A stretch of 64,000 nucleotides of DNA from Schmidtea nova (lineage: Eukaryota). Where the stretch lies: NCBI GenBank assembly GCA_044892505.1, contig CM097882.1:271374001-271438000 (forward strand), given 5' to 3'. The position numbers and the translations under genes were made by a program. The notes beneath the pieces were generated by a model. That model worked only from the letters and a program-made list of their open reading frames with translations, was not told the DNA's origin and ran no database searches. Every line of letters begins with the position of its first letter. Position 1 is the stretch's first letter. This document shows, one piece after another, positions 37,701 to 56,624 of the stretch.

Positions 37701-40304
37701 TCTTTTTATTTTTTTGTGTAAATATTTCAGAAAACAATTATTTATTAAAAAGATTTTAAAAGGCTGTGTAGAATGTTCACTTTTTTAAAATTATAGTTCT
37801 AATAATTATTATATTAGTAAATAGTTTTTTAAAAAGTCCCTCCTTCACTTTTTACATAAATATTAAGAAAAGTACATAACATTTCAAAATATACCAACAA
37901 CTTCAATAATGCCAGAATTCACATATAAAAGGTTAACGTACCAAAAGTAAATTTTCTATTATAAATCAAACTCACTTTGAAAGGCAGGACGATCCTGAAT
38001 GGTCTGTTAGACGGACTCAATCAGTATAAATACTGAACCGAAAATCAGTGAGATATACCGAATTTTGTGAACTAGTCTTCAGGTCGACTTTACTGATCTT
38101 GAATTATTAATTTGGAAACTTTCGTTAGAACGAACCTTTGAGGATCGATAATTAAATTTTATTTTGTTGTATTAAATGTTATATGCTCCCATGATATTAT
38201 TCAATAATATATTATTTCATAATGTTGATTTTATGACCAATTTAGTAAAGTGTCCTCTGTAGCTCACGCTGCGAGGTTTCTATCCATCTCCTAGGGGTTT
38301 CTTAGCTCCGCAAGATAATGAGTACATTTAACAACAATGCTAACATGCAACTTTGTAACAATAGATAGCTAAAATGATTTTTGATAGTTTCAGGAGGAGC
38401 ACTGTAAATAGGAGGTTTCGGTTAGAAATTCATAGATAATTTTTTAGACATCACTGCACTGGAATGCATTGGATAGTGCCAAGGGCCATAAGGTTCGTAG
38501 CTAAATGGAAATTTTATGAGGGCAGAGTATTGATGAAAGTCTAAATTCGTCTAGGAATCATGCAATACATTTCTTAGGTTGATAATAGGCTCATTCGCAT
38601 TTTATACACTATTGTCGTAAAAGGAATAATCGAATACCTGTTGGGGACCCAATTAATTATCATTAATACAAGTAAGGGAGGATTGACGAGTTGGACGGAG
38701 GCGCTTGGTTTATTTTTTACAGTAAGATAGTAAAAATTTCCTTTTGCAAATAAAACGAGAAACGTCGTCATTAGCGCAACTTTCGTAGCTCGAGGTAATG
38801 ACGAAAGGTGTGTAGGCCAGCCAGCGGTAAATGGAAAGGTCATGTGTACAATTTTCGGGATTTCAATTTAGGGAACCAAGGACGGGTAAAAAAGATTCGA
38901 CATATCTCCACCAGACAGTAGCGTATGTGGATGCAAGTCAGTCATTGAGGCGGACGTCGATAATTATTAAATTCACCTATATGGAATTTTACAGAAATGC
39001 AATAAACCTGGCTGGAAGAGAAACAAAATCAAAATACACGACGATATCAGCATTCATTCTCAATCTGGATGAGCACAAAGGACGAAATATGGCATCATGT
39101 GGGATTCATTGTCCAATTCCAATGGGATCCACGTATTCACCACAATACGCTAGTTTACTGATCATCATCAAGAACAAACTGCAGCGACTAATTTATTGGG
39201 GCTACATTTCCCAATCTGAAATCCATGCACTTGTGTTGGTGTTGCTTCGCCCTCCTTGGTCACTCCGAAAACTTCAGAAAGTGAAATTTGATAGATTATC
39301 AAAATCGATAATGCGACAAAAACCCATCCGACTTGGACTACAAATTCAACTGATTTTTGCGTGGAATTCCACGTTATGCTTCGACTAAAAAATAATCATG
39401 TTGAGTGTATCAAATATATGTCTTCTTTCTTTGTGCGAAGTTGTCCGATTTAGTGAATGAATATAGGAATTTTCAGATGATTGACTGTTACTAAGTAAAA
39501 TTTAGTTTTGTTTATAATTCTATTTAAATAAAGAGTTAACTTCATGTTGAATAGAAGTATCTATATCATTTCAGTGTGTCAAAATATCAGGGAACTCGTG
39601 ATGCAATTACAAAGGCTTGAAATACTCAGAAAGGTCATGAACGAGAGATCGAAAACTGTAAGGCTCAGGTAATCAAAATCAGTACCTGCGTCAAACTCTG
39701 TTTACGCTGGTTTAAATGAAAACAGATTAGGCTCACGGAAAGAGCCAAACGAGCCGTCACCGAAACACAATAAGAGCTCGAGGCAACATAAATAGAATTA
39801 CGAAAATTCCGTAACTCGGTCACTTGATCGTTGGTTGAGAAAGAGTTAAAGGCTTGCATCCGACCCATCACGTTGCAACAATACACCGATCAATTAAATT
39901 TGACGATTTTATTGAAAATTAAATTATTATTTTATGTCAAATTTAAAAAAAAATTTAAATAAATTTATTTTATCACAAAATGTTTACTCTAAAAATAAGA
40001 TTTTATTAATTTACTAAAATTTGATAAATTTTTATTTGGTGGGTTTTTTGATTGTCAATATAACTTTGACGTTGCCCTGGCTCCCATCAACAACTCAACA
40101 CATAAAACATTAGTCAAAACAATCTTGTTGCCCGTCACAATGTAACGTTGGTAGTGCAACAAATGGGTAGATGTATGCAAACAGTGATCGTCTATAAATC
40201 GAAAATATGATTGACCGAACATTACAGTGGGTATCAAAAATATTATATATATATATATATATATATATTATCATAATTATCTTTTTTCACCTTTGATCTT
40301 TTTT

Positions 40305-40485
40305 TATTATTATTATCAATAATTCTCATAATGACTATAGATCAAATTATTTTATAAACAATAACACAATATTTCGGCACAGCCTTTATCAAGTGTGTAC
40401 ACACTTGATAAAGGCTGTGCCGAAATATTGTGTTATTGTTTATAAAATAATTTGATCTATAGTCATTATGAGAATTATTGATAAT

Positions 40486-40492
<7 letters not shown>
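40305..40492. repeat. Perfect 188 bp palindrome (94 bp arms, no spacer) flanked by (TA)n
   Basis: Checked base by base, centre between 40398 and 40399 (GTGTGT|ACACAC). Confidence 0.95.
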
Positions 40493-40521
<29 letters not shown>

Positions 40522-41667: not shown

Positions 41668-42729
41668 TGTTAGGGTTCGAGATCAAGGGATCTCGGGTTT
41701 TTGTAATTAAATATTATAAGTAAATAAATAAATATAAATAGCAATTAAGAATTACTATAAATAAATAGATAAATAGTAATAGTAAATAAATAATTACTAT
41801 AAATAAATATAGATTAAATATAGTAATAATTAAATAGTATATAATAAATATAGTAATAAATAAATACATGATACATTTAAATAATAATAATAAGTTATAT
41901 ATAGTAATAATAAATTACTTTAAATAAAAATATAATAGATATTTTTAAAGGTCATGATTAGTATGACCACCACCGCTTTATTTTCAACGTAGTAGTAAAC
42001 CTACTATCGCTTAAAAAAATTATATATATACTGATTGCAAAATCAGTTGAGGAGAAAAATTAATTTTTGAGCAGAAGAATTACGAGAAGTTCAGAGCAGA
42101 ACATAAGTGTTTACAGAATAGTGAATTTGAGAAGTTTAGTTCAAAGTTAAATTTGCGTGGAGAGAATAATTTTACAGAATTTCATTTGTGATAATTTTCC
42201 GAAATTGGAATAATCTTTGAGCAAATTATTAGCTGGTAAATTTTCTAGTTTGTTTTAATTCTATAAATCGATCACGGGGAAATAGTTATATTACTATTTT
42301 TCCCCTTCAGTAAAGTCGTTAAATAATAAATTATTAGAAGGGAAATTATTAGGTCACAGTGACAACCATTTCTGGGTTGTCACTATCGCGATTAAACTAC
42401 CGGGAATCCCTCGTCTTTTGTCCTTTCATTTAGTCGGAGCTGTTGAGCCTTTTAGGTCCAGCTTTCGTTCTTAAACTCTGAGGACGGTTTGTATAACCGA
42501 TTTTCTAACTTTTGCTTTGCAGCTATTTTATTATATTGTACATTGTTATACATATTTCACAATAAATTTTATTAAAACGAATTAGTTTTGTATTCTTTAC
42601 ACCCAACCTAAAACATATATTTTATTTATAATTAATAAGCGGATTATCGTTTGGAGTCCGATAATCAAATTAAAGTTTTAAATATATATACTTTCTGTGT
42701 TCGTCGTAACCACTGATACGAACCGAACA
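41668..42729 (+). repeat. 5' LTR
   Basis: Direct repeat of 55563-56624, with five substitutions seen by eye. AT-rich low-complexity U3, TATA-like run at about 42021, TCAGTT initiator-like motif at about 42045 and AATAAA at about 42561. Confidence 0.97.
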
Positions 42730-42732
42730 TTT

Positions 42733-42750
42733 TGGTGAGCCCGGCGTGAT
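42733..42750 (+). promoter_or_regulatory. Primer-binding site, tRNA-Trp
   Basis: TGGTGAGCCCGGCGTGAT matches 16/18 positions of the standard Trp PBS TGGTGACCCCGACGTGAT, 3 nt after the LTR. Confidence 0.85.
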
Positions 42751-42821
42751 ACAATTATTATCAGTGGGCATATTGTCATATATACAAAATAGCTCCTAAA
42801 AAGTTAAAAGTTGTGGAGGAC

Positions 42822-45800
42822 ATGGCTGAAGAGAATAATGTTTTTGCTAGATATCCCGCTTTACCTGTCAAGGCATTTAGCGGAGATCCAGGAGAATTTC
42901 CGGAGTTTATGTCAGAGTATTATCAGATGGCAAAGGCCTATGGGTATCCAGATGCAATAATGATACAAAGACTGCCAATTTACCTTAAGGGTATGGCAAG
43001 GGAAAATTACAACGATATTATGGCGTTACCAGCAGCAGATAAACCAGGTACATGGGAAAAGATGAGAGAATCACTAACGGCTAGAATATTACCGGGAGAT
43101 TCAAGTAGAATTTTCCGACAACAATTTTATCACAGGAAGCAGAATGCAAATGAACATGTAGGAGAATTTTCCTATCAATTATTGTTATTAGCAGAAAGAG
43201 CATTTGGACTCAGAACTACCTGGAATGATGCAACTAAAGCTATGGTTAAAGACCAATTATTAGCTGGATTCACAAATGTTATGAGAAATGCATTGATTCT
43301 CCACACGGGAGATGATTTTTGGGAATTAACAAGAAAAGCTGTCGTAATCGAAAGCAGCTTAGAAAAGGCTACCTCATTTATGGTAAATAATGAGAAACCA
43401 GCAATTGAATGTTTTAACTGCCATAAGAAAGGGCACATATCAAAAGATTGCCACAGTAAGAAGGTAGCTGATACTCGTAGGGGTATTCAGTGTACTAAAT
43501 GTGGTATGAATAATCATAGTGTTGAGAACTGTAGAGTCACGAACTTGCAGTGTGATAAATGCAAACGCAGAGGGCATGTGGCTTCCGTTTGTAGAGTTAA
43601 AATTCTCCCCACGAATGGGAATTTTAATATAAAAAGGGATGATGTTAATTCATCAGGAAAGATAAAATGTCACGGATGTGGAAAATTCGGGCATATTCTG
43701 AGGTCGTGTCCTCAAAATCAGAGTAATAATACGAATAATAGGACTACCAATAGTGGTAATATCAGCAAGCCAAAAACTACGTTCATGGTCAATCACGATA
43801 AAGAATTGACGTATTTGCAACAACTGGAAATGGAAATCCAGGAGGAGAAAAATCGATTAGCACGGCTAATGGATCGAGATGATACAGTTTTTATGATTTC
43901 AGCTGAGAAAAATCATGCTCACACAGATGAGCGAGGAACAGTTTTGATGAATACAATTGAAGAAATAAATGAGACTCACACAGTTGGGCAAGAGACAGTT
44001 TTTATGATTTCAGCTGAGAAAAATCATGCTCATATGGATGGGCGAGGAACAGTTATAATGAATCCCATTGAGGAAAGCGATGATGCTCACACAGTTGGGC
44101 AAGGAACAGTTTTGATGATTTCAGCTGAGAAAAATCATGATGCTTACACAGACGAGCAAGGAAATAGTGAACTCATGGATTCCAGCAGCGAGAATCATGA
44201 GGTAATAGAATCAGAAACAAATTCTGATAATGATGACGAACCCAGTATGAGTACCATACTGAGCGAGTTCGACCAGGCTTTGTTCAAGGAAACAAAGGCC
44301 AAGAAAGGGTCAGATACCCTAGCAAAATGTTTAAAACTGGTGGATTCCAGATATGAGTATCAGCAGAGACTGACTCGAGAATTAGAGAAATTATCACAAG
44401 GTGATATCAAGAATAGTGAAATTGGAAAGATATTACAGTTAATATCTCAGGTCGAAGATGATCCAAGGTATCATAGCGACATACATAAAATCCTACGAAA
44501 GATAGGAACTGCAATGGAACATGAATGGGATCTTCAGGATTCGCATTTAAACATAAAACTTCCTCAGGAGCAGGAGTTTAACATCGACATGAATGTAAGA
44601 TGTCGAACAGATAAGTTGTCAGATACAGTGATGAAATTGAAACTTAATAGATATGATTTTTATCTATATGGAGAAAAGTTAGTAGTTGGGGAAACACTAC
44701 TACAAAATGGTGTATTACCAGGAAGGGTAACGAAACTCACAACGAAACTGACAGGAATATCGGTCCCAGTAGTGGATCAAGACAGTGTGTTTCTACTCAC
44801 ACAAATGGAAATTGCACAGTTGGAGGAAGTCCAACAAATAGAGCAACGTCTGAAGATAGAGTTGCAGAAATCTCCGAGGGATGCAGAAACAATCAAGGAA
44901 ATATTAGACTGGATGTTGGTATTGCGCATACCAGTAGAATCATTGGAGAATATAATTCCTATTCTACTACCTGTAGCAAAGGAAACTAGTTCATTTCAAA
45001 CGGAAATAAAAATGTTAATGAGGAAAAATGGAACAGCAATACGTCATCAAGCACATCGACAAGGCATGATAACTTTAGACCTTCGAATATCGGGAAAAGA
45101 ACCCATGACGAGATTATATCGCTGTTTTAGCAAAGTGATAACGTTGAGAAAAGATTTAATAGATACTGGGCAGACTACCGGTATATTCTTGATTATGATT
45201 CATGGAGGGCAAGTGGATGATGATGAATATTTAGTAGATGTGGGATGTCTACCATTTGAAACGACAACAGTAGCAATCATTCCCGTAGAGCCACCTGAAT
45301 CTCAATGGTCAGCATTACGGTTACCAGATGAAATGGTCACTGGTAATGTTGAAACACAACCATTTAATGTAGATATCGATGCCGATAATCACGGAGAAGA
45401 GGAAATCAGACTCAATAATGAGGAAACTAACGTGGGAGCTTCAAATTCTCGGGCGGTAGAAACTGTCAGGCCAGCATGGCAGATAAAGAAAGATAGGCGA
45501 GGAAGGCCTAGGAAAGATCAAATGAAACCTCCACCAACGGAGCAATTAAACCAAGAAACCATTAAACAGGTTCAGATGAAAACCCTGTCAGGAATAGCCA
45601 GGGATGTTGATATGAGAGACGAGGGTGTACATATACCAGAAAAATCTCTGACATGGAAGAGATTAAAACAGATCATAGGAATATTAAAGCCGGAATGGCA
45701 GATCACTCGGATTAAAGGAATTCAAGTGGATAAAGTGACACAGTCAATCGCGAAGACGATGAGGAGATTACCTAAAGGGGTACCGCAAAACGAGATACAG

Positions 45801-48356
45801 AATATGTTAGAGACACTCATACAAGATGGGTTATCTAAAGGAAAAATAGTGACAGCATTATCTATGTTGATTCAAGATGCCTTAGCCCGCGCAGGCAATG
45901 AGAAGAAACTTATTAATCGAGAAATAGACCAGATCACGGAGATAACGGAGCATTATCTCGGAACGTGGATGAGTGAAAATAACTTCTGGGAAGAGGAGAA
46001 ACATAAACTACGATATGAATTCGTGGAAAAGGCTATGAATAACAACCACCTCGGAAATGGAGGAATGGGGAATATGACGAATATGATATTAATGTTTTTA
46101 GTAATGATGGGAATAATGAAACAGACAAACACAATGACAGCGTTTGATTGCAGTGATCCAAAGTTAGCTCGGATATATTCGCTAGTAGATGCAATTGAGT
46201 GCAAAGAGGCATACCCAGAGAAAGTCCAAACAGGAGAAAAGGTCGAATACTATGTTTATCAAGAAAGTGAATTCTTCAGAACTAAGATAAGAGAATGTAG
46301 AGTCCAAAGAGCGACATTTGAATATTATTGTGGTTCACACAGCTATACAGCCTTTCTATCAGCCACTCTAATACCCAGACCTGTCAACATATTGCCAGAA
46401 GATTGTCTTGACGCCTTTCGAAAAGGTACTTTAAGAATCGATAACGAGGTAACCATCGCCGCGGAAGTAGGAAAAACATTGGGAGTAACCATTACACGAG
46501 GAGGATCAATCGGATCAGATGGTACCTGTTCGGGAAGAAAGAAAACTCGCGGATCGGAGTTGGTAAGTTTTGTCGTAGATATTGAGGACTATTCAATCGA
46601 ATTAAGAGAATACGAAGGGACGTTCGATGTATTATCAGGAAGATTAATGGCACACCCTCAGTGCCTTGCGAAATTTGGAAGCTGTAGAACAGGGGTCATT
46701 ACATTATTATACGATCAAATACTAGACCATTGCGAATTGTCATTACTAAAGAAAATTAATTTCCATAAGTTGAACGGGACAAAGTATCGAGATTTACCCA
46801 AAAGAGAAAGAATTTGGGATAAAGAAAAGACGTTGAAAAGGATCAACAAACAGCAAAAAGAGGATATTAGTGAGGAAATCACACCTCTAGTATTAGTATC
46901 AGAAGATAAGAAAGATGCAATCAGATTTGTCAGAAAAGATAAGAAGACAAAATGCGGAAAAGTGGTGTATGAGACCAACTATAAAGGATTATATTTGTCA
47001 AAAACATTTATCCAAAAGGCCAAGAATATTCACAGCCAGGATATCAAAATCACGAACTATATAAATAATAAAATAGATTATTTATATCATGATCTGCAAG
47101 GACAAATGCAGGAAATGTATCAGGAAGTAATACTTAATGATTGCAAACTAAATCGCGAAATAGTTCGAAATCGGTTAGCGATATCAATCGTGAATCCGGA
47201 TCTAGTGACACCTATGTTGCTAGAAGATGGAATGTTTGGCAGAATTATGGGGGAAGCTATATACAGCTATCAATGTCAACCCATAGAGGTACAATTAACA
47301 CGGTACAATGAATGTACTCTAGAATTACCAGTGTCATATCAAAACAAAATACGATTTGTAATGCCAGTAACGAGGAGACTTTTGGATGAAAAACAAAAGC
47401 CTCAACCTTCAATTTGCAATCCAGCAATATCACCGTTATACAAGGTAAATGATAGATGGATCTCATTACCTGACAGAAAACCATCTAATAGAAAGGTGGA
47501 AACATTGGAAGTCACGAAACTCGAGGAAAACATGGAATTTAAATCACTCGATGAATTATCACAAGGAGGAATTTACACTCCAGTAGACATTGAGGAGGCA
47601 AGACAGACGTTGCTATTTCCTCAAGTAAGAGAAAGAGGTATCACTGAAATCATAAGAACAATTTACCAAGCAAACGAAATGAGACCAGATTACAATTTAT
47701 TATTCGGTCCAGATCATTATAAAGAAGCAGCTAAAAATGTGATGATGAAAATATGGGGAAGGTTTACCAATTTTGGTATATTCGTGGCAGGCTGCTCAGG
47801 AATATATGCAATATTCGTAATTCTAAAGTTAATAATAACACAATTAATTTCCACATACAGCATATTCAAAATCGGTGGATGGTCTTGGAAGTTGATACTA
47901 GGATTGTGTCCTATGTGTGCGGAATTTGCATTGTTTAAACATCATCGTAAAGAAATAAAGACAATCAAACAGAGAAGCTTGGTTAAACACGAGATTATTG
48001 GAATCGAAATGGAGGGTAATACAAGTTATCGGGACGATAACAATTCGGAAGGAGGAGGTAATGGAGACTCTCTTAATACAGTTCAGAGGCAAAGTAGAAG
48101 TCGAAAAAGAAACTACAATAAAAAACCGAATCATCAATTAAGGAAAATGAAATATCGGGATTATCAACCACCTTACGAAGCGACAAAACAGATTTTCGAC
48201 AAAAGTATGATTTCAGAAGATGAATACGATAGTGCAGACCAGAAATTTGCAATCAATACAGCATCACCTAGATTGAAAAGAAGCCCAAGATATATGCAAT
48301 TGCCATATCTTAGAAGCTTACCAACAGCGCCAAAGGGGGAATCGCCAGAGTTTTAA
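42822..48356 (+). CDS. Gag-Env polyprotein, 1844 aa: capsid, 4 CCHC knuckles, 37-aa repeats, two Ubl-like domains, AT-hook, signal peptide, chuvirus-like glycoprotein, TM, basic tail
   Basis: Uninterrupted ORF. Knuckles at 43410-43709, RGRPRK at about 45498, hydrophobic signal at about 46086-46120, AFDC...YYCGSHS...CG...NKIDYLY...CKL...GEAIYSYQC...ELPV cysteine pattern and TM at about 47772-47870. Confidence 0.93.
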   Translation: MAEENNVFARYPALPVKAFSGDPGEFPEFMSEYYQMAKAYGYPDAIMIQRLPIYLKGMARENYNDIMALPAADKPGTWEKMRESLTARILPGDSSRIFRQQFYHRKQNANEHVGEFSYQLLLLAERAFGLRTTWNDATKAMVKDQLLAGFTNVMRNALILHTGDDFWELTRKAVVIESSLEKATSFMVNNEKPAIECFNCHKKGHISKDCHSKKVADTRRGIQCTKCGMNNHSVENCRVTNLQCDKCKRRGHVASVCRVKILPTNGNFNIKRDDVNSSGKIKCHGCGKFGHILRSCPQNQSNNTNNRTTNSGNISKPKTTFMVNHDKELTYLQQLEMEIQEEKNRLARLMDRDDTVFMISAEKNHAHTDERGTVLMNTIEEINETHTVGQETVFMISAEKNHAHMDGRGTVIMNPIEESDDAHTVGQGTVLMISAEKNHDAYTDEQGNSELMDSSSENHEVIESETNSDNDDEPSMSTILSEFDQALFKETKAKKGSDTLAKCLKLVDSRYEYQQRLTRELEKLSQGDIKNSEIGKILQLISQVEDDPRYHSDIHKILRKIGTAMEHEWDLQDSHLNIKLPQEQEFNIDMNVRCRTDKLSDTVMKLKLNRYDFYLYGEKLVVGETLLQNGVLPGRVTKLTTKLTGISVPVVDQDSVFLLTQMEIAQLEEVQQIEQRLKIELQKSPRDAETIKEILDWMLVLRIPVESLENIIPILLPVAKETSSFQTEIKMLMRKNGTAIRHQAHRQGMITLDLRISGKEPMTRLYRCFSKVITLRKDLIDTGQTTGIFLIMIHGGQVDDDEYLVDVGCLPFETTTVAIIPVEPPESQWSALRLPDEMVTGNVETQPFNVDIDADNHGEEEIRLNNEETNVGASNSRAVETVRPAWQIKKDRRGRPRKDQMKPPPTEQLNQETIKQVQMKTLSGIARDVDMRDEGVHIPEKSLTWKRLKQIIGILKPEWQITRIKGIQVDKVTQSIAKTMRRLPKGVPQNEIQNMLETLIQDGLSKGKIVTALSMLIQDALARAGNEKKLINREIDQITEITEHYLGTWMSENNFWEEEKHKLRYEFVEKAMNNNHLGNGGMGNMTNMILMFLVMMGIMKQTNTMTAFDCSDPKLARIYSLVDAIECKEAYPEKVQTGEKVEYYVYQESEFFRTKIRECRVQRATFEYYCGSHSYTAFLSATLIPRPVNILPEDCLDAFRKGTLRIDNEVTIAAEVGKTLGVTITRGGSIGSDGTCSGRKKTRGSELVSFVVDIEDYSIELREYEGTFDVLSGRLMAHPQCLAKFGSCRTGVITLLYDQILDHCELSLLKKINFHKLNGTKYRDLPKRERIWDKEKTLKRINKQQKEDISEEITPLVLVSEDKKDAIRFVRKDKKTKCGKVVYETNYKGLYLSKTFIQKAKNIHSQDIKITNYINNKIDYLYHDLQGQMQEMYQEVILNDCKLNREIVRNRLAISIVNPDLVTPMLLEDGMFGRIMGEAIYSYQCQPIEVQLTRYNECTLELPVSYQNKIRFVMPVTRRLLDEKQKPQPSICNPAISPLYKVNDRWISLPDRKPSNRKVETLEVTKLEENMEFKSLDELSQGGIYTPVDIEEARQTLLFPQVRERGITEIIRTIYQANEMRPDYNLLFGPDHYKEAAKNVMMKIWGRFTNFGIFVAGCSGIYAIFVILKLIITQLISTYSIFKIGGWSWKLILGLCPMCAEFALFKHHRKEIKTIKQRSLVKHEIIGIEMEGNTSYRDDNNSEGGGNGDSLNTVQRQSRSRKRNYNKKPNHQLRKMKYRDYQPPYEATKQIFDKSMISEDEYDSADQKFAINTASPRLKRSPRYMQLPYLRSLPTAPKGESPEF

Positions 48357-51300
48357 AAGACATCAGGAGAAGGCAAGTCAAGTTATGCTTTAACCATACC
48401 AAGAAACAAAATGTACATTTCTAAACATCAACAAATTCTCGACAAAGAGGCTCGAGAAACAGGTAAAAGCATATCATTATCGTTAGAAAATGAAGGGAAA
48501 CTGTATCCTATCGAGTCGTTAGAAGCAATAAAAGCAAAATTCAAGGAATATAATCCAAAATTGAGTGATACCGAACAAGATGAAGCAGAGAAATTCAGAG
48601 CAAATACCATCGGGATAACGCATGCTACTATTTTGATGGCAAATGGGGTGAACTTGGATAAGAAACCCATGATAAAGATAAAAATAAACTGACACACAGT
48701 TAATGCAGTGATAGATTCAGGAGCAGACGGCACCATCATAGAGGCAACACTATTAAATCAAAAAGAATTGGAATCAATGGAAACCTCTAGAGTTTCGCTA
48801 ACAGGTGCTACAGGCACATCATTGAATATTATCGGTACTCTAGTTTGCAACATCAAGCTATGTGACCAAGAATTTCGTCATGATATTATAGTCATGAGAA
48901 CTTGTCCAGTAGAATGTCTACTAGGAATGGATCTTTTAAGAAGATTAAAAGGAGTTGTGTTCGATTGTGCTACCGGATTGTTAGTTAGATCAATCGGTAA
49001 GAAAAGAAAAGTTTATAATGATGATACAGTTTTCATCGATCATACGATGATAATACCACCAAGAGCAGAAACAGTATGTTTCGTGTCCACTAGCGAACAG
49101 TGGGAAGGAGAAGTTGTATATTCGAACCAGATGAAAGGTTCTCAGCAAAATATAATCTACCAATTACGCATAGCGTTGGTAAAGTTGAAAATGGCAGAAT
49201 ACCAATTCGGGTAGCCAATTTAGATATAAAACCATTAAAATTGTACCCAGATACAAGAGTAGGGAGAGTATCAAAGTCGGATCAATTACCGATTGGGGGA
49301 TCTGTCCTGACAGTGAAGGCAGAGAATAGAGAACCAGACATCGAGTACTATGATGCGCCAACGGCAAATAGTAAAGCTCTTTCACGAAGAGAGAATATTC
49401 AAGTAAACATGTTGTTAAGAAAATATGATCAAGTATTCGCCAAGCACGAATATGATCTGGGAAAGACGAACTTGTTGGAACATGAAATTGTTCTTAACAA
49501 TACGAAACCAATAAAACTGAGACCGTATCGAATTCCGTTTAGCTTGGAAGAACCTGTCGATAAGCAGGTAAAACTGATGTTAAAACATAACATCATCAGG
49601 CATAGTAAATCACCATACCAGTCACCAATGATAGTGGTGGCAAAAAAGGATGGAACAGTACGACTATGCAACGACTATCGAATGGTAAACGAAGCAACTT
49701 GCAAGGATAGTCACCCATTACCATTATTGGATTACATTTACGGACGCATGAGAAATTCAAAATATTTCTCAGTGATGGATGCTCAGAAGGGATTTTACCA
49801 AATCAAGTTAAAAGAGGAGACAATACCAATTACGGCTTTTTCTACAAGCCTTGGACACTTCGAATATACAGTAATGCCATTTGGTCTTACAGGAGCGCCG
49901 GCAACGTTTCAAAGAGCCATGAATCTAATGTTAATGGATGTTCATCATGCAATGGTATACATAGATGACATCATTGTATTTTCTCCAGATTTGGAAAAAC
50001 ATTTAGAACATTTAGAGGACGTATTCAAAAGGTTAATTAATGCAAATCTTAAGGTAAAACCATCAAGATGTAAATGGGCCGAATCAGAAGTAGTCTATGT
50101 CGGTCACATTATCTCGAAGGATGGAGTAAAACCAGATCCAGCAAATGTTGAGAAAGCAAAGAATTTTCCAGAGTCAAAGACAGTCAAACATATTAAAGGG
50201 TTTTTGGGCTTAGTGGGATATTACAAGAAGTTCATCAGAAACGTTTCGGCCATAGCGTTTTCTCTGACACAATTAGAGGGAACAAATGTCAAATTTGTAT
50301 GGGGAAAAGAGCAACAGGGAGTATTTGATATGCTAAAAAGGATGCTCGTGGAACCTCCCATATTACGATTTCCAAATTTTTGAAAAAAAACTTTTGGTCA
50401 TGACAGACGCCAGCACTCGGGGTATTGATGCTGTGTTAGGTCAAAGAGATGACCTACGCGATGAATATGCCATAGTGTAAGCTAGCAGAGGATTGAAACC
50501 GCATGAAAAGAATTATGTAGTTATTGAATTAGAGGCATTTGCAATCGTTTATGCTATCAATCAATTTAGGACGTATTTATGGGGTCGAAAGATCATTGTG
50601 TATACGGATCATAGACCATTACAGTGGTTAACAAAGCATACTATGGATACATCAAAATTGGTTAGATGGGCATTGATCTTGCAGCCGTACGACATCGAAA
50701 TACATTACCGAAAAGGACATCAAAATGGGAATGCAGATGCATTTTCTCGAATGGACCAGGGTGATGAAGCAGAAGACGTTAAGGAAGGAAGATTAGAAGG
50801 AACAATCTTCGCACTTACAAGAGAAGCAAACAGACTCGCGGATTTAATGGCAGCACAACAATCGGATGAAGAGATAAACCAAATCAGACAGGCTTTAGAA
50901 GCAAAGTTCATACCGACGGAATTTAATAAATATTGGGAGAAAAATCGAGACAAATTTATCCTAGAAGAAGGATTAGTCAAATATGTGGATGTAAGGGATA
51001 ATGTCATAATGGTCCCTAAGAAATATCGGGAAGCCTTGATGTTACAATATCATGATGGAGCACTGGGAGGGCATTTATCTTCCAGGAAAACATTGTCAAG
51101 GTTGAAGCAGAAATATTTCTGGCCGACAATCAAACAAGACGTACAGGAATGGTGTCAGACATGTAAGATCTGTATCACCAGGAGAAATACGGGGAAGAAA
51201 CCTCATGTGCCAATGAAACCAATGCCAGTACCATCCACACCGATGGAAATGACGGCGATGGATATTTTAGGGCCATTCAAAGAATCAAATAGTGGTAACA

Positions 51301-53093
51301 AATACATATTGGTATTTTGCGATTACTTGACGAAATGGCCGGAGGCTTATCCGATACCGAATCACAAGGCAGATACGATAGCCAGGATTTTCGTAGAGCA
51401 AATTGTTTTTAGGTATGGAGTACCTACAAAACTACTAACAGATAGAGGAGCAGATTTCATGAGTAATCTGTTAAAAGGAATAAATGATTATTTCGACATT
51501 TTAAAACTGAATACCTCTCCATACCATCCACAAACAGACGGATTGGTAGAGAGATTTAACGGAACGCTCGCAAATATGCTAGCATCATACGTAAATTCAG
51601 GGCAAACGGATTGGGATATACATATTCCATCATGCCTATTCGCATACAGAAATGCTGTTCATGAGGGTACGGGACAAACGCCGTTCTATCTCATGTATTT
51701 AAGGCAAAGTAAAATGCCTATAGACTTGTTGTTTTTCCCAAAAGCAACGCAGTATCTAGACCAAGAAGATTACCTCATGGAAATGAGAGAAAGAATGCAA
51801 GAAGCATGGACAAAAGCAGGTCTTAGTATAAAATTCAGTCAGGAAGCGTCGAAAGATTATCATGATAAGAAAGCCAAAGGACATGGCATGTTAGTTGGAG
51901 ATAAGGTGATGTTAGAAAGCCATTATAATAAAAAGGGCTTATCACCTAAATTAATGAGAAACTTCAAAGGACCGTATGAGGTTTTGAGAACCACAGACAC
52001 GAATTTAATCTTGCAATTAGTAGCAAATAGAAAAGCTGAACCAATAATGGTACATGCTAACAGATGCAAGAAAGTTGCGGTCACGGAGAAAGATCCGATT
52101 AAGAAAAAGGAGGATAAAGGGTCAGAACCAGTCTCAGACAGATATCCATTACGATCAAGAAGCGTGCCAAAATCAGTTACGTTTTTGGTAATAATAAGTT
52201 GCCTTATATCCTGTGTAAAGACATTTGTTCCAACAGCGGTACAAATTCAAGATCTCGCATTTAGAAGATCTTTCCAGGAATTTAGAATAATATCATTAGC
52301 TGAAAATGATACCAAATTCAAGTTCTCGTTTTGCGAACGACGTTGTTTCCATTTTACATTGGATTCAAACACAAGAGTGAAAGTCATAAAGGACTTACGA
52401 GCAGAAAAGGAATATTTATTAGATATACTTGTTCAACATTTTATGTTCGGACGATGGTCAGATTTTTCAAAGTCACAATGGAAGCTGAAGACAGCAGATT
52501 TCAAAAGGAAAGTTAGAATAAATATCCAACAAGGTATGATTACCTTCAGCCAACCAAAACAAGGAGTGGATAGAGTAAAGATAGAAATCCATTCCGACAA
52601 GGAAATAGTACAAGAATTGTGGCTAAATGAAGATATTGAGAAACAAAATCTCAAGTGGAACAGCTCAGTGGAGTGGGAAGCTCATATCACTTATATGAAT
52701 AATAAACAAAAGCCCGGAGTCGATGAATGGAATGAGGTATTTTATGAAGTAATCTCTTTGAAATTACCACAATCATCGACGACAACGAAATCGGTTACAT
52801 CAATTATACGGAAAGAAAGTTACGTCATTCATCCTGCAATATGGCAGAGATTGAAAGGATTGAAAATGGTAAAACCAACAGTATCAACAGAAAGCTATAT
52901 TAAAAGTTGTCAGTGTGAAATTAACGAAGTAAACCCCATTACTCACTTGGGAAAATTACCCGTTGGGGTATGGATTATTACGTCAGCAGTATTATCTATG
53001 ATCACTACATTAATAGCAATGGGGGTTTGGATGAAATTATTCTTCAGTCAGGCTATTGAGTCGGTTGATGGGATTATGATGACGAGATTATGA
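48357..53093 (+). pseudogene. pol (PR, dUTPase-like linker, RT, RNase H, integrase) plus in-frame C-terminal membrane protein; four lesions
   Basis: IDSGADGT, RLCNDYR, YIDD, TDAS, ELEAFAIV, YTDH, HHCC, DILGP/TDRG/VERFN and GPYEV. Lesions: TGA 48690, -1 nt near 49108, +1 nt near 50381, TAA 50478. Confidence 0.93.
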
Positions 53094-53207
53094 CAATTAC
53101 AGATAAAATCACATATTTGTATTTATATATATATTAAAATCTATAATCTTGTTGAGCTCCGAGTAGCATTAACTTACAGCATAAGTAGATCCCGTAAATC
53201 GAGATTT

Positions 53208-55268
53208 ATGCATTTCTTTTTAGCCAATATTGGCATATCAGTATATCTGATATTAACGTTAATTATTTTTCTTTCAGATATGAAGCATCAAGTGTCACAA
53301 TACAAGCAGCGTTACAGCACTATCGATGTGCAAACAATACAGAAGGAAAAACTGATTTATCGAAACATCGAAAAAGCGATATCCGCAGAAGCACGGAAAG
53401 GTCGTCGCTATTGGTATTACGGGCACTGCACCGGCATCCCGAACAATTTTAAGTTTCTTGGATCACCTAAGAGACAAATGTGCATAGTCACAATTACCAG
53501 CCGTGAGAACACCCGGTTGACTGAACACATGGCGGAATTTAACAGATCAACATTTACTCACCATCTCCTGATTCACGCGATCAATAAACCCTTTACAATC
53601 TTCATGGCAGGAGCCACAGGACCTATCCTACTTCAACCAGAATCAACTCTAGAAATTAGTAACGGAGATGGCAGAGAAAAGAATATCTCCATCCAATGTG
53701 AAGGATATAATACCATTGTGGTATTAGAGATTTTGGAACCCAGCAAGGCAGTGCAATCATTGTGGAAAAATGAACCTGCCTGGACCTATAATGTGAATGA
53801 GAACGATCTCAAATCATTCAAATCCTTTGTTCGGATGAATCTGCACCCCAATCAAGAAGATAGGTTGTCAATATTTATTGCAGCGCATTACGCAACTTTG
53901 CGAGATTATTTAAAGCCAGCTTTGGTGGCTGTTTCGATAGCAAACTACTGTGGTGATTTAATACTAAACACGGTGGTTACACCCAGAAACCAGGTCAAAC
54001 ATTACCAATCGCACGCGCATGGTATGACCGAAAAAGAAATCATCGGACAATTTGACGGAGAGGATTGCGCAGACCGTATTAGGAAATTATGTGATGGGAA
54101 AATCCTAATAGGTCTCCAAGTCAACGATTTCTTGGAAGCAGTCCAGTTACACCCTCAACGAGTTTTGGGAATTAGAGAACTAGGAGCAGCAAAATGCCTG
54201 GAAGCGAGAGAACTAAAGAAATGTAACGGACATTATCGACTCGCGTATTTATCAAAGTCAATTCTCGAAAAGGAAGAACTAAACCGTTCAGATCTGAAAA
54301 CGGAAAATGACGTGGAAACGACACGTAATATTTACCTTAAACTGAGAGAAGTTTGGGTAGATGACATCACCCCAGGTAATCGTAGTGGGACGATTACATC
54401 AGAAGTCAAAATGGTTCATACAATACAGCCACAAGAAACGAGTAAAAGGAAAGCTATTGAGAGCTTACCCCAGGAACAGCCATTATCAACCAAATTGCAA
54501 AAGATAGTTGAGGAAGAATCACTATCCCCTCCAGCTATATCCTTAGCTGATGAAGACGATTACGCCACCTGCGAAAGCGAGGGTGAGGAACAAACAGAGA
54601 TGCGTTTAACTTTACACGGAGACAGCCGTACAAAGATCGTGCCAGAAAATCCACCAAAGAAAGAGAACAAGCTCTTGGAAAAAGTTACTAAGACTTTTCA
54701 AAAATTGACTTCAGTAGAAAAGTCATTCCCAAAGAAAAGTCAAGAACCTGTTGTAAGGTTACAAGATCTAAAGATCAAGAAGAAAGTACCAAATCTCCTC
54801 TCGACGGAAGACAAAGATTTAATCGAAACAGCATTCGTTCCACCCGATATGGAACAGATTCCTGAGGTTAAGGGCGAACCTATCATTATAAGAGAAGGGG
54901 ATTTCGTTGGAACGGGAAACTCAGCAAAGATACCCCAGGATTTGGACAATGAAGACCCTAGTTTTTGGCAGCGACCAGAGAGAAATTGGGTACCTCGGAT
55001 AAAAGAATACGACGGGAAACCGGTACACCAATCATCAGTTTCAAACTTCCCTTACTATGGCGTATTGGAGGCCAACGGAAAATCATACGTGATTTCTTCT
55101 TTGGTATATAAGGAAGTTGAAACACGTGAAACATTGGTGGTCAGCTATAGACCAGATATAGTGGAAGATCGCATCAGGAACGAACAAGCGCATATTCGCA
55201 AGAGAGCAGCTCAAAACCTATTCGCGAAGGATAACAAGCATTGCTGCTACGTTCAATCCAAGGTCTAG
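53208..55268 (+). CDS. Accessory ORF3 with a degenerate DEDDh (REXO4/ISG20-like) exonuclease domain at about 53859-54356
   Basis: LVAVSIANYCGDLILNTVVTPRNQVKHYQSHAHGMTEKEI...KILIGLQVNDF...ENDVETTRNIY aligns by eye with REX4 ARVSIVN.G....D..VKP...V.DYRT.VSGI...ILVGH.L..D...EDA.....LY. Possible alternative start at ATG 53280 after TTTCAG. Confidence 0.75.
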   Translation: MHFFLANIGISVYLILTLIIFLSDMKHQVSQYKQRYSTIDVQTIQKEKLIYRNIEKAISAEARKGRRYWYYGHCTGIPNNFKFLGSPKRQMCIVTITSRENTRLTEHMAEFNRSTFTHHLLIHAINKPFTIFMAGATGPILLQPESTLEISNGDGREKNISIQCEGYNTIVVLEILEPSKAVQSLWKNEPAWTYNVNENDLKSFKSFVRMNLHPNQEDRLSIFIAAHYATLRDYLKPALVAVSIANYCGDLILNTVVTPRNQVKHYQSHAHGMTEKEIIGQFDGEDCADRIRKLCDGKILIGLQVNDFLEAVQLHPQRVLGIRELGAAKCLEARELKKCNGHYRLAYLSKSILEKEELNRSDLKTENDVETTRNIYLKLREVWVDDITPGNRSGTITSEVKMVHTIQPQETSKRKAIESLPQEQPLSTKLQKIVEEESLSPPAISLADEDDYATCESEGEEQTEMRLTLHGDSRTKIVPENPPKKENKLLEKVTKTFQKLTSVEKSFPKKSQEPVVRLQDLKIKKKVPNLLSTEDKDLIETAFVPPDMEQIPEVKGEPIIIREGDFVGTGNSAKIPQDLDNEDPSFWQRPERNWVPRIKEYDGKPVHQSSVSNFPYYGVLEANGKSYVISSLVYKEVETRETLVVSYRPDIVEDRIRNEQAHIRKRAAQNLFAKDNKHCCYVQSKV

Positions 55269-55550
55269 CAATAAGCTATGACAACTATCAATCAAACAAT
55301 TAGCATTTCGGCTATGTGATCAACAATCCAACTCTTACAGACAGTTATTATTTGATATCGATTGTGATCAACATTACTTATGTATTATGCGTTTTATGAG
55401 ACTCATTTGTTTTATGTGATTTATTTTAATTTTTATTGACCAGGTGCAGTCAATGTATATATATGCATGTGTTGTTATTTTATTTTTTATTTTATGGCTG
55501 CGTAACCTTCTTGTCTTTTCCGCTTTAATTTTCGGGACGAAAATCTTGTT

Positions 55551-55560
55551 AGGGGGAAGA
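55551..55560 (+). promoter_or_regulatory. Polypurine tract
   Basis: AGGGGGAAGA, 2 nt before the 3' LTR. Confidence 0.88.
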
Positions 55561-55562
55561 CA

Positions 55563-56624
55563 TGTTAGGGTTCGAGATCAAGGGATCTCGGGTTTTTGTA
55601 ATTAAATATTATAAGTAAATAAATAAATATAAATAGCAATTAAGAATTACTATAAATAAATAGATAAATAGTAATAGTAAATAAATAATTACTATAAATA
55701 AATATAGATTAAATATAGTAATAATTAAATAGTATATAATAAATATAGTAATAAATAAATACATGATAAATTTAAATAATAATAATAAGTTATATATAGT
55801 AATAATAAATTACTTTAAATAAAAATATAATAGATATTTTTAAAGGTCATGATTAGTATGACCATCACCGCTTTATTTTCAACGTAGTAGTAAACCTACT
55901 ATCGCTTAAAAAAATTATATATATACTGATTGCAAAATCAGTTGAGGAGAAAAATTAATTTTTGAGCAGAAGAATTACGAGAAGTTCAGAGCAGAACATA
56001 AGTGTTTACAGAATAGTGAATTTGAGAAGTTTAGTTCAAAGTTAAATTTGCGTGGAGAGAATAATTTTACAGAATTTCATTTGTGATAATTTTCCGAAAT
56101 TGGAATAATCTTTGAGCAAATTATTAGCTGGTAAATTTTCTAGTTTGTTTTAATTCTATAAATCGATCACGGGGAAATAGTTATATTACTATTTTTCCCC
56201 TTCAGTAAAGTCGTTAAATAATAAATTATTAGAAGGGAAATTATTAGGTCACAGTGACAACCATTTCTGGGTTGTCACTATCGCGATTAAACTACTGGGA
56301 ATCCCTCGTCTTTTGTCCTTTCATTTAGTCGGAGCTGTTGAGCCTTTTAGGTCCAGCTTTCGTTCTTAAACTCTGAGGACGGTTTGTATAACCGATTTTC
56401 TAACTTTTGCTTTGCAGCTATTTTATTATATTGTACATTGTTATACATATTTCACAATAAATTTTATTAAAACGAATTAGTTTTGTATTCTTTACACCCA
56501 ACCTAAAACATATATTTTATTTATAATTAATAAGCGGATTATCGTTTGGAGTCCGATAATCAAATTAAAGTTTTAAATATATATACTTTCTGTGTTCGTC
56601 GTAACCACTGATACGAATTGAACA
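55563..56624 (+). repeat. 3' LTR
   Basis: Direct repeat of 41668-42729, followed by TSD CTTA. Confidence 0.97.

Follow-up and report, generated by a model that had tools for sequence, protein, structure and literature searches.

The PTAP and LYPIESL motifs considered here belong to a chuvirus-like envelope glycoprotein (Env), on what is predicted to be its cytoplasmic tail, within a single Gag-Env-Pol polyprotein. We regard them as probable late domains, with TSG101 and ALIX as binding partners, for ESCRT-mediated scission of a budding particle (probability about 0.62). Judging from the comparisons described below, these elements and the viruses related to them likely recruit the membrane-cutting machinery through the envelope rather than the capsid protein. 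The motifs themselves likely belong to the glycoprotein tail and not to a displaced Gag p6, since none of 22 env-less relatives has the YP motif before its protease, while glycoproteins encoded without a gag carry both.

The window, a 64,000-nucleotide stretch of Schmidtea nova DNA, contains a copy of a Ty3/Gypsy element of ~15 kb, whose family has a single Gag-Env-Pol frame of ~3,450 aa with a chuvirus-like Env. All features are on the plus strand. The LTRs (5′, 41668..42729; 3′, 55563..56624, with a polypurine tract before it) have TG...CA ends, are identical at 1060 of 1066 positions and are flanked externally by a 4-bp target-site duplication; a primer-binding-site-like stretch beginning TGG lies just inside the 5′ LTR (42733..42749). 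From the first ATG at 42822, Gag and a long spacer without a Pfam match extend to 46073, with a CCHC zinc knuckle in Gag at ~43407-43451 (PF00098, E 7.8e-5). A hydrophobic stretch, by hydropathy a putative internal signal/anchor (46074..46118), precedes the ectodomain of the HSV gB-type fusion glycoprotein (46134..47771; PF24664, Monjiviricetes_fusion, E 6.2e-90). This is followed by the membrane segment (47772..47936) and by the tail, or linker to the protease (47949..48638), which contains both motifs. A cytosolic location for the tail is suggested by hydropathy and by the fused protease, reverse transcriptase and integrase, the membrane segment having two hydrophobic runs (47772-47858 and 47892-47936). 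At its end the tail has a T-[VTI]-[FL]-M sequence, which recurs six times in the element frame and is a putative protease site.

Downstream lie the aspartyl protease (48693..48960; PF13975, E 3.9e-10) and the reverse transcriptase, the RNase H and the integrase (49094..52100), which in the window copy are broken close to 49,117 and again somewhere within 50,383-50,481. The frame continues past the integrase into an extension with two hydrophobic runs and no Pfam match, possibly a second membrane protein (52161..53093), and an extra ORF (53094..55268) includes an ISG20-like exonuclease-fold stretch (7yw5_A, E 1.7e-5). The pol order, PR-RT-RH-IN, is that of Ty3/Gypsy errantiviruses, and together with the LTR ends, the target-site duplication and a chuvirus-like Env between gag and pol (the Env class coming from the profile match) it places the element among the GAG-ENV-POL errantiviruses, a class that is already published. 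In a quick tree of 47 rows, which included 30 stand-alone proteins picked in id order and gives no direction of transfer, the Env clustered with those of 11 other Gag-Env-Pol proteins (SH-aLRT 95). A PDB sequence search with the Env returned no match below E 0.4, a word-index search returned no longer Env relatives, and a sequencing-run search listed no RNA holder for the element.

With respect to the motifs, the positions given in an earlier sequence-only reading were confirmed. PTAP (48321..48332, within the 7-mer LPTAPKG at 48318-48338) and LYPIESL (48501..48521) match the TSG101-type and ALIX-type YPx3L consensus, respectively, and lie in one frame, 60 codons apart, with LYPIESL 70 residues upstream of the protease catalytic Asp. 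That reading had them straddling the stop of ORF1; the TAA in question (48354..48356) proved to be damage of the window copy, as one comparison shows it in none of 29 other copies and a larger one in none of 46 (59 of 60 submitted loci matched, minus duplicates and the window's own locus). Programmed read-through at 48354 was rejected on the same count (0/46). A second break, the TGA at 48690..48692, is likewise private (0/46), as is the frameshift near 49,117 (0/29). The window copy is thus broken and would not make the full polyprotein, and intact frames of 3,446-3,453 aa occur at about 20 of 150 scored genomic places. From Gag through protease in the window frame, the other late-domain pattern match is a single YPxL near the Gag N-terminus.

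Among the 46 other copies of the window element's family (family A), PTAP is kept in 44 and the YPx3L of LYPIESL in 45, but copies that are 98-99% identical test nothing about selection and were not accepted as proof. More telling is the comparison of four families of this genome (A-D), between which the Env membrane segment is 37-78% identical and all of which have YPx3L in the same position. The motif followed by x2[LIM] is found in family A, in 36 of 38 loci of family B, the two misses being frameshifted, in 7/7 intact loci of family C, and in shifted frames in 3/3 degraded loci of family D. It aligns across A, B and C, with the catalytic Asp ~67-70 residues downstream in each, and is kept between A and B even though only 40 of 152 aligned linker residues are identical. 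Moreover, in two B subfamilies (linkers identical at 111 of 156 residues) the seven core residues are unchanged while six core codons differ silently. PTAP is patchier: it is present in families A and B, at positions that do not align, and absent from C (0/7) and D (0/3). In the conservation check that the earlier reading had proposed, YPx3L holds up and PTAP does so in patches, being found in two of four families and one of 11 outside linkers. The retroviral order of the two motifs, offered as support, carries little weight, given a PTAP-to-YP spacing of 60 residues in the window copy and 0 in family B.

Outside this genome, the linkers of 11 Gag-Env-Pol proteins (28-42% identical in Env; P0004, missed by the protease pattern, was left out) were compared using patterns fixed beforehand, namely YPx1/3L, P[TS]AP and PPxY only; a hydrophobic-YP pattern was chosen after the linkers had been inspected. 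YPx1L or YPx3L occurs in five of the 11, against a shuffle mean of 0.44 with none of 2000 shuffles reaching five, and at 4.0 per 1000 aa in linkers versus 0.53 in the remainder of the same proteins. The common form there is n=1. By these patterns, six of the linkers contain no motif, and ten are without PTAP. Before the protease of env-less Ty3/Gypsy relatives, YPx1/3L was found in 0/22 (Fisher p 0.002), a small control set (22 of 119 proteins usable, ten with an upstream knuckle) that does not comprise the nearest relatives. The one env-carrying protein in this RT-selected set has a linker that holds PSAP, PPxY and LYPxL. Searching the genome with PF13975 for families to serve as env-less controls yielded none, as 29 of the 30 loci listed belonged to family A.

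The same motifs recur in stand-alone relatives of the Env. In the last 45 residues of 89 such proteins, four named chuvirus glycoproteins among them, YPx1L occurs in 24 (shuffles 1.0) and P[TS]AP in 12 (shuffles 0.5), and the reversed motifs in three and none, respectively. After thinning to <35% identity, each is found in 5/36 (shuffles 0.4 for YPx1L and 0.2 for P[TS]AP). Neither PPxY (4/84 tails; shuffles 2.0) nor the generic Y[^P]xx-hydrophobic pattern (34/84; shuffles 41) is enriched, and 46 of the 89 tails contain no motif by the patterns used. In two glycoproteins without gag, P0106 and P0107, PTAP stands one residue ahead of YP, as in family B. Taken together, these sequence comparisons place YPx(1/3)L beyond chance; for PTAP in the window element alone the same is said less firmly, because it occurs in only two of four families and at different places. 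The attachment of the motifs to the Env tail, as first described, is borne out: they behave like conserved late-domain motifs, lying past the Env membrane segment and ahead of the protease.

Several other explanations were weighed against a budding function. Matches by chance in a low-complexity linker would fit short motifs, the extra YPxL near the Gag N-terminus, the uninformative near-identical copies and a PTAP that appears and disappears between families. For YPxnL, however, this is refuted by the shuffle, reversed-motif, rest-of-protein and env-less controls, and the silent-only changes in core codons run against it as well; chance as a whole appears very improbable, less so for the PTAP of this element alone. 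We give equally little credence to a p6-like segment severed from Gag by insertion of env upstream of it, as the sequence-only reading had proposed. In lying between nucleocapsid and protease the segment does match HIV-1 p6 in location, and P(T/S)AP is upstream of YPxnL wherever both occur (A, B, P0007 and P0158). Yet the env-less relatives lack YPx1/3L before the protease, glycoproteins without gag, including P0106 and P0107, carry the same pair, and the knuckles lie ~790 residues away from Env; on these comparisons a Gag p6 origin is already largely refuted. By parsimony, the tail motifs would instead have come with the glycoprotein family.

Instead of serving as an ESCRT ligand, the YP motif could be a tyrosine-based signal read by clathrin adaptors in sorting, or the start of a structural helix beside the protease. 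YPx1L formally matches the Yxx-hydrophobic sorting signal, and the n=1 form common outside this genome suits such a role too; a structural role is in keeping with the fixed distance between motif and protease in A, B and C. We nonetheless consider both improbable. In the n=3 forms of families A-D, position Y+3 is not hydrophobic, and the tails are enriched in P[TS]AP without being enriched in other Yxx-hydrophobic motifs; stand-alone glycoproteins have the motif without a protease, and env-less elements the protease without the motif. Somewhat less improbable, although still unlikely, is that the motifs bind ALIX and TSG101 to route Env with its attached Pol to multivesicular bodies or to exosomes, or to clear Env from the surface, rather than for particle scission. 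This fits the same conservation data as the budding reading, and part of the text of PMC9511404 describes cellular membrane proteins that load vesicles through late-domain motifs. It sits less well with an element in whose frame, read from Gag through the protease, no other late domain is evident, the YPxL noted above being the sole further match, and with chuvirus genomes given as L-G-N or N-G-L with no matrix gene named (PMC6932829, in part).

In terms of mechanism, a budding role for the tail would work as follows. The internal hydrophobic stretch would thread the polyprotein into the ER, so that Gag on one side and the tail, protease, RT and integrase on the other stay cytosolic. The protease may then cleave just upstream of itself and the motifs would therefore remain on Env. 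Env would thereby deliver the Pol enzymes, and with them the budding signal, to the membrane, where the tail would recruit TSG101 and ALIX and ESCRT would cut the particle free. The putative partners are encoded by the host genome, in which a TSG101-UEV and an ALIX-V domain were found; in the single exons examined, most of the pocket residues that were checked are conserved. The F676 position of ALIX is kept (single exon), as are Y68, N69 and I70 of TSG101, with F at 63, in an exon that excludes pocket residues 139-143; a word-index search returned no full-length host ALIX. The alternation of n=1 and n=3 in YPxnL matches the two known types of ALIX ligand (PMC5995805).

A broader proposal, which we offer tentatively as a possibility somewhat short of even odds, is that the whole chuvirus-type glycoprotein family bears its own ESCRT-recruiting late domains on the cytoplasmic tail, and that this is the budding route of the matrix-less chuviruses. 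A retrotransposon capturing such a gene would have gained entry and exit machinery at once, which could explain both the success of the capture and the in-frame position of env before the protease. The proteins from which canonical late domains are known are internal ones: Gag, matrix and a few more. Here, a single fusogen family, shared by free viruses and retroelements, has TSG101-type and ALIX-type motifs on its tail, which suggests that env capture may have delivered a budding signal along with the fusogen. For each motif a host partner and a 10-residue target can thus be named, so that peptides and knock-downs in the host could be used to test how invertebrate env-carrying retrotransposons and the matrix-less chuviruses exit the cell.

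Among known systems, the GAG-ENV-POL errantiviruses of Platyhelminthes, Nematoda and Bryozoa with HSV/gB-type Env (Chary and Hayashi, PMC13524379) share with the window element a Ty3/Gypsy pol and a gB-type env between gag and pol and, compared by description in the text available, LTRs, many near-identical copies and a length of ~15 kb. The terms "late domain", "ESCRT", "budding" and "cytoplasmic tail" have no matches in the available main text of that paper, nor does "late domain" in the available text on Burro/GYPSM1 (PMC6431247). This planarian giant gypsy, as described there, also encodes one polyprotein in which env sits in frame after gag and before pol, and its env likewise matches fusion glycoproteins of negative-strand RNA viruses; it differs in its length (>30 kb versus 15 kb), its 4,873-aa ORF (versus ~3,450 aa) and its BIR, BCL2 and ankyrin domains, for which the window element has no Pfam matches. 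HIV-1 p6 and EIAV p9 likewise combine P(T/S)AP with YPxnL, n=1 and n=3, between nucleocapsid and protease (PMC5995805 and PMC8402826, in part), but there the motifs are on soluble Gag, and here on a membrane glycoprotein tail fused to a protease. Our literature search returned no prior report of late domains on chuvirus- or errantivirus-type Env tails, and in the available text of an artovirus paper such motifs are on other proteins. The idea that a matrix-less virus reaches ESCRT through its glycoprotein tail is shared with hartmanivirus GP2 and hantavirus Gn, discussed as matrix surrogates in part of PMC6261641, although the glycoproteins are unrelated and the motif, speculative there, is of the ALG-2 type and not a canonical P(T/S)AP or YPxnL. 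Related in the glycoprotein itself are the chuviruses (Jingchuvirales), such as Fushun oxya chinensis chuvirus 1 (gp2) and Tacheng tick virus 4: their stand-alone proteins differ in being type I, of ~650 aa and mostly of the n=1 form, but share with the Env of the window element the PF24664 glycoprotein family and carry the same motifs in a short C-terminal tail.

The window carries a 15-kb LTR retroelement (41668-56624) of the Ty3/Gypsy group in which env lies between gag and pol. It is flanked by a 4-bp target-site duplication, and its Pfam matches run in the order CCHC knuckle, Monjiviricetes fusion glycoprotein (Env; PF24664, E 6.2e-90), protease, RT, RNase H and integrase. The element is a further member of a published class, as GAG-ENV-POL errantiviruses with a gB-type Env are described from Platyhelminthes, Nematoda and Bryozoa (PMC13524379), and planarian Burro elements carry env in frame (PMC6431247). 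The insertion is young, as the two LTRs match at 1060 of 1066 positions (99.4%), yet several breaks are private to this copy, reflecting either decay or assembly error. Between Gag and Env, the spacer contains a 111-nt tandem repeat (43881-44159, forward strand) whose units bear a recurring T-V-[FL]-M motif, a possible protease cleavage site. Past the integrase, the pol frame continues (52161-53093, forward strand) with roughly 310 residues between two hydrophobic runs, a candidate second small membrane protein with no Pfam match. An extra 724-aa frame before the 3' LTR (53094-55268, forward strand) has a hydrophobic N-terminal run (53211-53285) and a stretch that may adopt an ISG20L2/ISG20-like exonuclease fold (E 1.7e-5). 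Outside the retroelement, inverted-repeat elements and related hairpins at 1742-3190, 5002-5120 and 40296-40501 are probably small DNA transposons.

Within this element, PTAP (48321-48332), a TAA codon (48354-48356) and LYPIESL (48501-48521) share one frame, and the positions given for the motifs in the sequence-only reading were correct to within the flanking residues quoted. That reading also took the TAA for the ORF1 stop. A genome DNA search, in which 40 of the 228 candidates were scored, returned at least 40 places (counting that of the window itself) at 98-100% identity, and the TAA, a TGA at 48690 and a frameshift near 49,117 each occur in none of 29 other copies. With further loci added, both stops are absent from all 46 distinct copies, so the TAA is not a feature of the element. 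Because these breaks are private and frames of 3,446-3,453 aa stay open at about 20 of 150 scored genome places, the element's family (family A) makes a single Gag-Env-Pol polyprotein. The motifs fall at offsets 124 (PTAP) and 185 (LYPIESL) within the 255 residues from the Env membrane segment to the protease catalytic Asp. PTAP is found in 44 of 46 family-A copies and LYPIESL in 45 of 46, counts that say little because the copies are so nearly identical.

At least four related Gag-Env-Pol families occur together in this genome (loci L031-L088), and in three of them many copies keep frames of about 3,400, 3,450 and 3,550 aa open. In family B (Env 44-50% identical), PTAP sits one residue ahead of YPx3L in 29/30 and 7/8 loci, the misses being frameshifted. 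Family C (72-73% identity in the membrane segment) has YPx3L in all seven intact loci and PTAP in none; the other seven loci from that search are degraded, and three of them constitute family D, with YPx3L in shifted frames, PPxY in two and PTAP in none. The motif continues as x2[LIM] in all four families, and by global alignment the YPx3L of A falls on those of B and C, even though the A and B linkers between membrane segment and protease share 40 of 152 residues. Two B subfamilies have identical residues at the seven core motif positions, with silent differences in six of the codons, and differ at 45 of 156 linker residues. The proposed check of conservation in relatives thus favored YPx3L, present in families A-D; PTAP is confined to A and B, at positions that do not align.

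Searching Env against 1.84 billion representatives gave 1,392 matches, and the counts that follow come from the 150 listed. In eleven listed proteins, a protease motif comes after the Env membrane segment. Their linkers contain YPx1L or YPx3L in 5 cases (shuffle mean 0.44), YP in 9 (shuffles 2.7) and PSAP in 1 (shuffles 0.03), and YPx1/3L occurs at 4.0 per 1000 aa there vs 0.53 elsewhere in the same proteins. Some Gag-Env-Pol polyproteins from outside this genome (P0001, P0003 and P0011) seem to have two protease-like stretches. As a control, 119 proteins were found by RT; 96 were unusable, and the 22 usable ones (no Env, 150 or more residues ahead of the protease), a small and distant set, contain YPx1/3L before the protease in no case and PSAP in one. 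The single Env-bearing protein found by RT has PSAP, PPxY and LYPxL in its linker.

Most listed Env matches stand alone as glycoproteins some 650 aa long. Of 20 whose records were checked, 4 bear the name of a chuvirus or chuvirus-like glycoprotein, 1 falls in a cluster with wasp genome proteins and the other 15 have uninformative names; PF24664 is the sole Pfam match in all 7 scanned. The last 45 residues of the 89 listed proteins of 600-800 aa (median tail identity 18%) contain YPx1L in 24 (shuffles 1.0; reversed motif 3) and P[TS]AP in 12 (shuffles 0.5; reversed motif 0). Thinning these 89 to 36 proteins below 35% identity leaves five of each (shuffles 0.4 and 0.2). When tails were instead cut by hydropathy (84 of the 89 listed proteins), P[TS]AP was absent from the ectodomains and other Yxx-hydrophobic motifs were unenriched (34 vs 41 in shuffles). 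The family-B arrangement, PTAP one residue ahead of YP, recurs in two stand-alone proteins, one of them from a named chuvirus. In a quick tree, one branch (SH-aLRT 95) separates 12 fused Envs from the stand-alone proteins, giving no direction, and the motifs occur on both sides. Read most simply, they belong to the glycoprotein tail, although convergence may also account for them.

With respect to mechanism, hydropathy reveals hydrophobic runs at 46074-46118 and 47772-47936 that would serve as an internal signal and the Env anchor, placing Gag on the cytosolic side together with the tail-protease-RT-integrase part. The sequence T-[VTI]-[FL]-M appears at five positions beyond the knuckles and again at 48627, directly ahead of the protease; if these putative sites are cleaved, the motifs would stay on Env. 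YPx3L would then draw ALIX to the bud neck, and PTAP, where it occurs, would draw TSG101 there. An engineered protein whose glycoprotein tail bears a peptide that binds ESCRT is reported to drive vesicle budding (PMC10121106). Both host genes are expected in any animal, and their presence is permissive only. The genome encodes TSG101-type UEV exons, two at separate places (L069:1492-1773 and L070:1474-1752), and an ALIX V-domain exon. Numbered from the ranges aligned with the human structures' sequences, the first UEV exon keeps Y68, N69 and I70, with F at 63; the F676 position is retained in the ALIX exon. These are pocket residues, and ALIX ligands come in n=1 and n=3 types (10.1101/2024.11.15.623737, PMC5995805).

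Taken together, we put the probability that the Env-tail motifs recruit ALIX/TSG101 to the bud neck at about 0.6, judging from sequence. Against it, PTAP is patchy, about half of the relatives lack a motif match, the topology comes from hydropathy, and the control is small and distant. ESCRT binding could instead serve sorting rather than scission, which we consider unlikely. A non-ESCRT role is less probable still. We give very little credence to a displaced p6, as proposed with env inserted inside gag, or to chance, short as the motifs are; the env-less proteins and stand-alone tails bear on the former, the shuffles and reversed motifs on the latter.

Late domains are themselves well known (PMC8402826). 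Our search found no earlier report of them on a chuvirus-type fusogen tail, in retroelements or chuviruses, with most of the subscription literature, and the figures and sequence files of PMC13524379, outside its reach. Chuviruses, to our knowledge, lack a matrix protein. Their gene order is L-G-N or N-G-L (PMC6932829). Bornavirus late-domain candidates are located on P (PMC5834213). The nearest printed idea found concerns hartmanivirus GP2, on whose tail an ALG-2 motif is suggested speculatively (PMC6261641); that motif differs from the PTAP and YPx3L of the window element.
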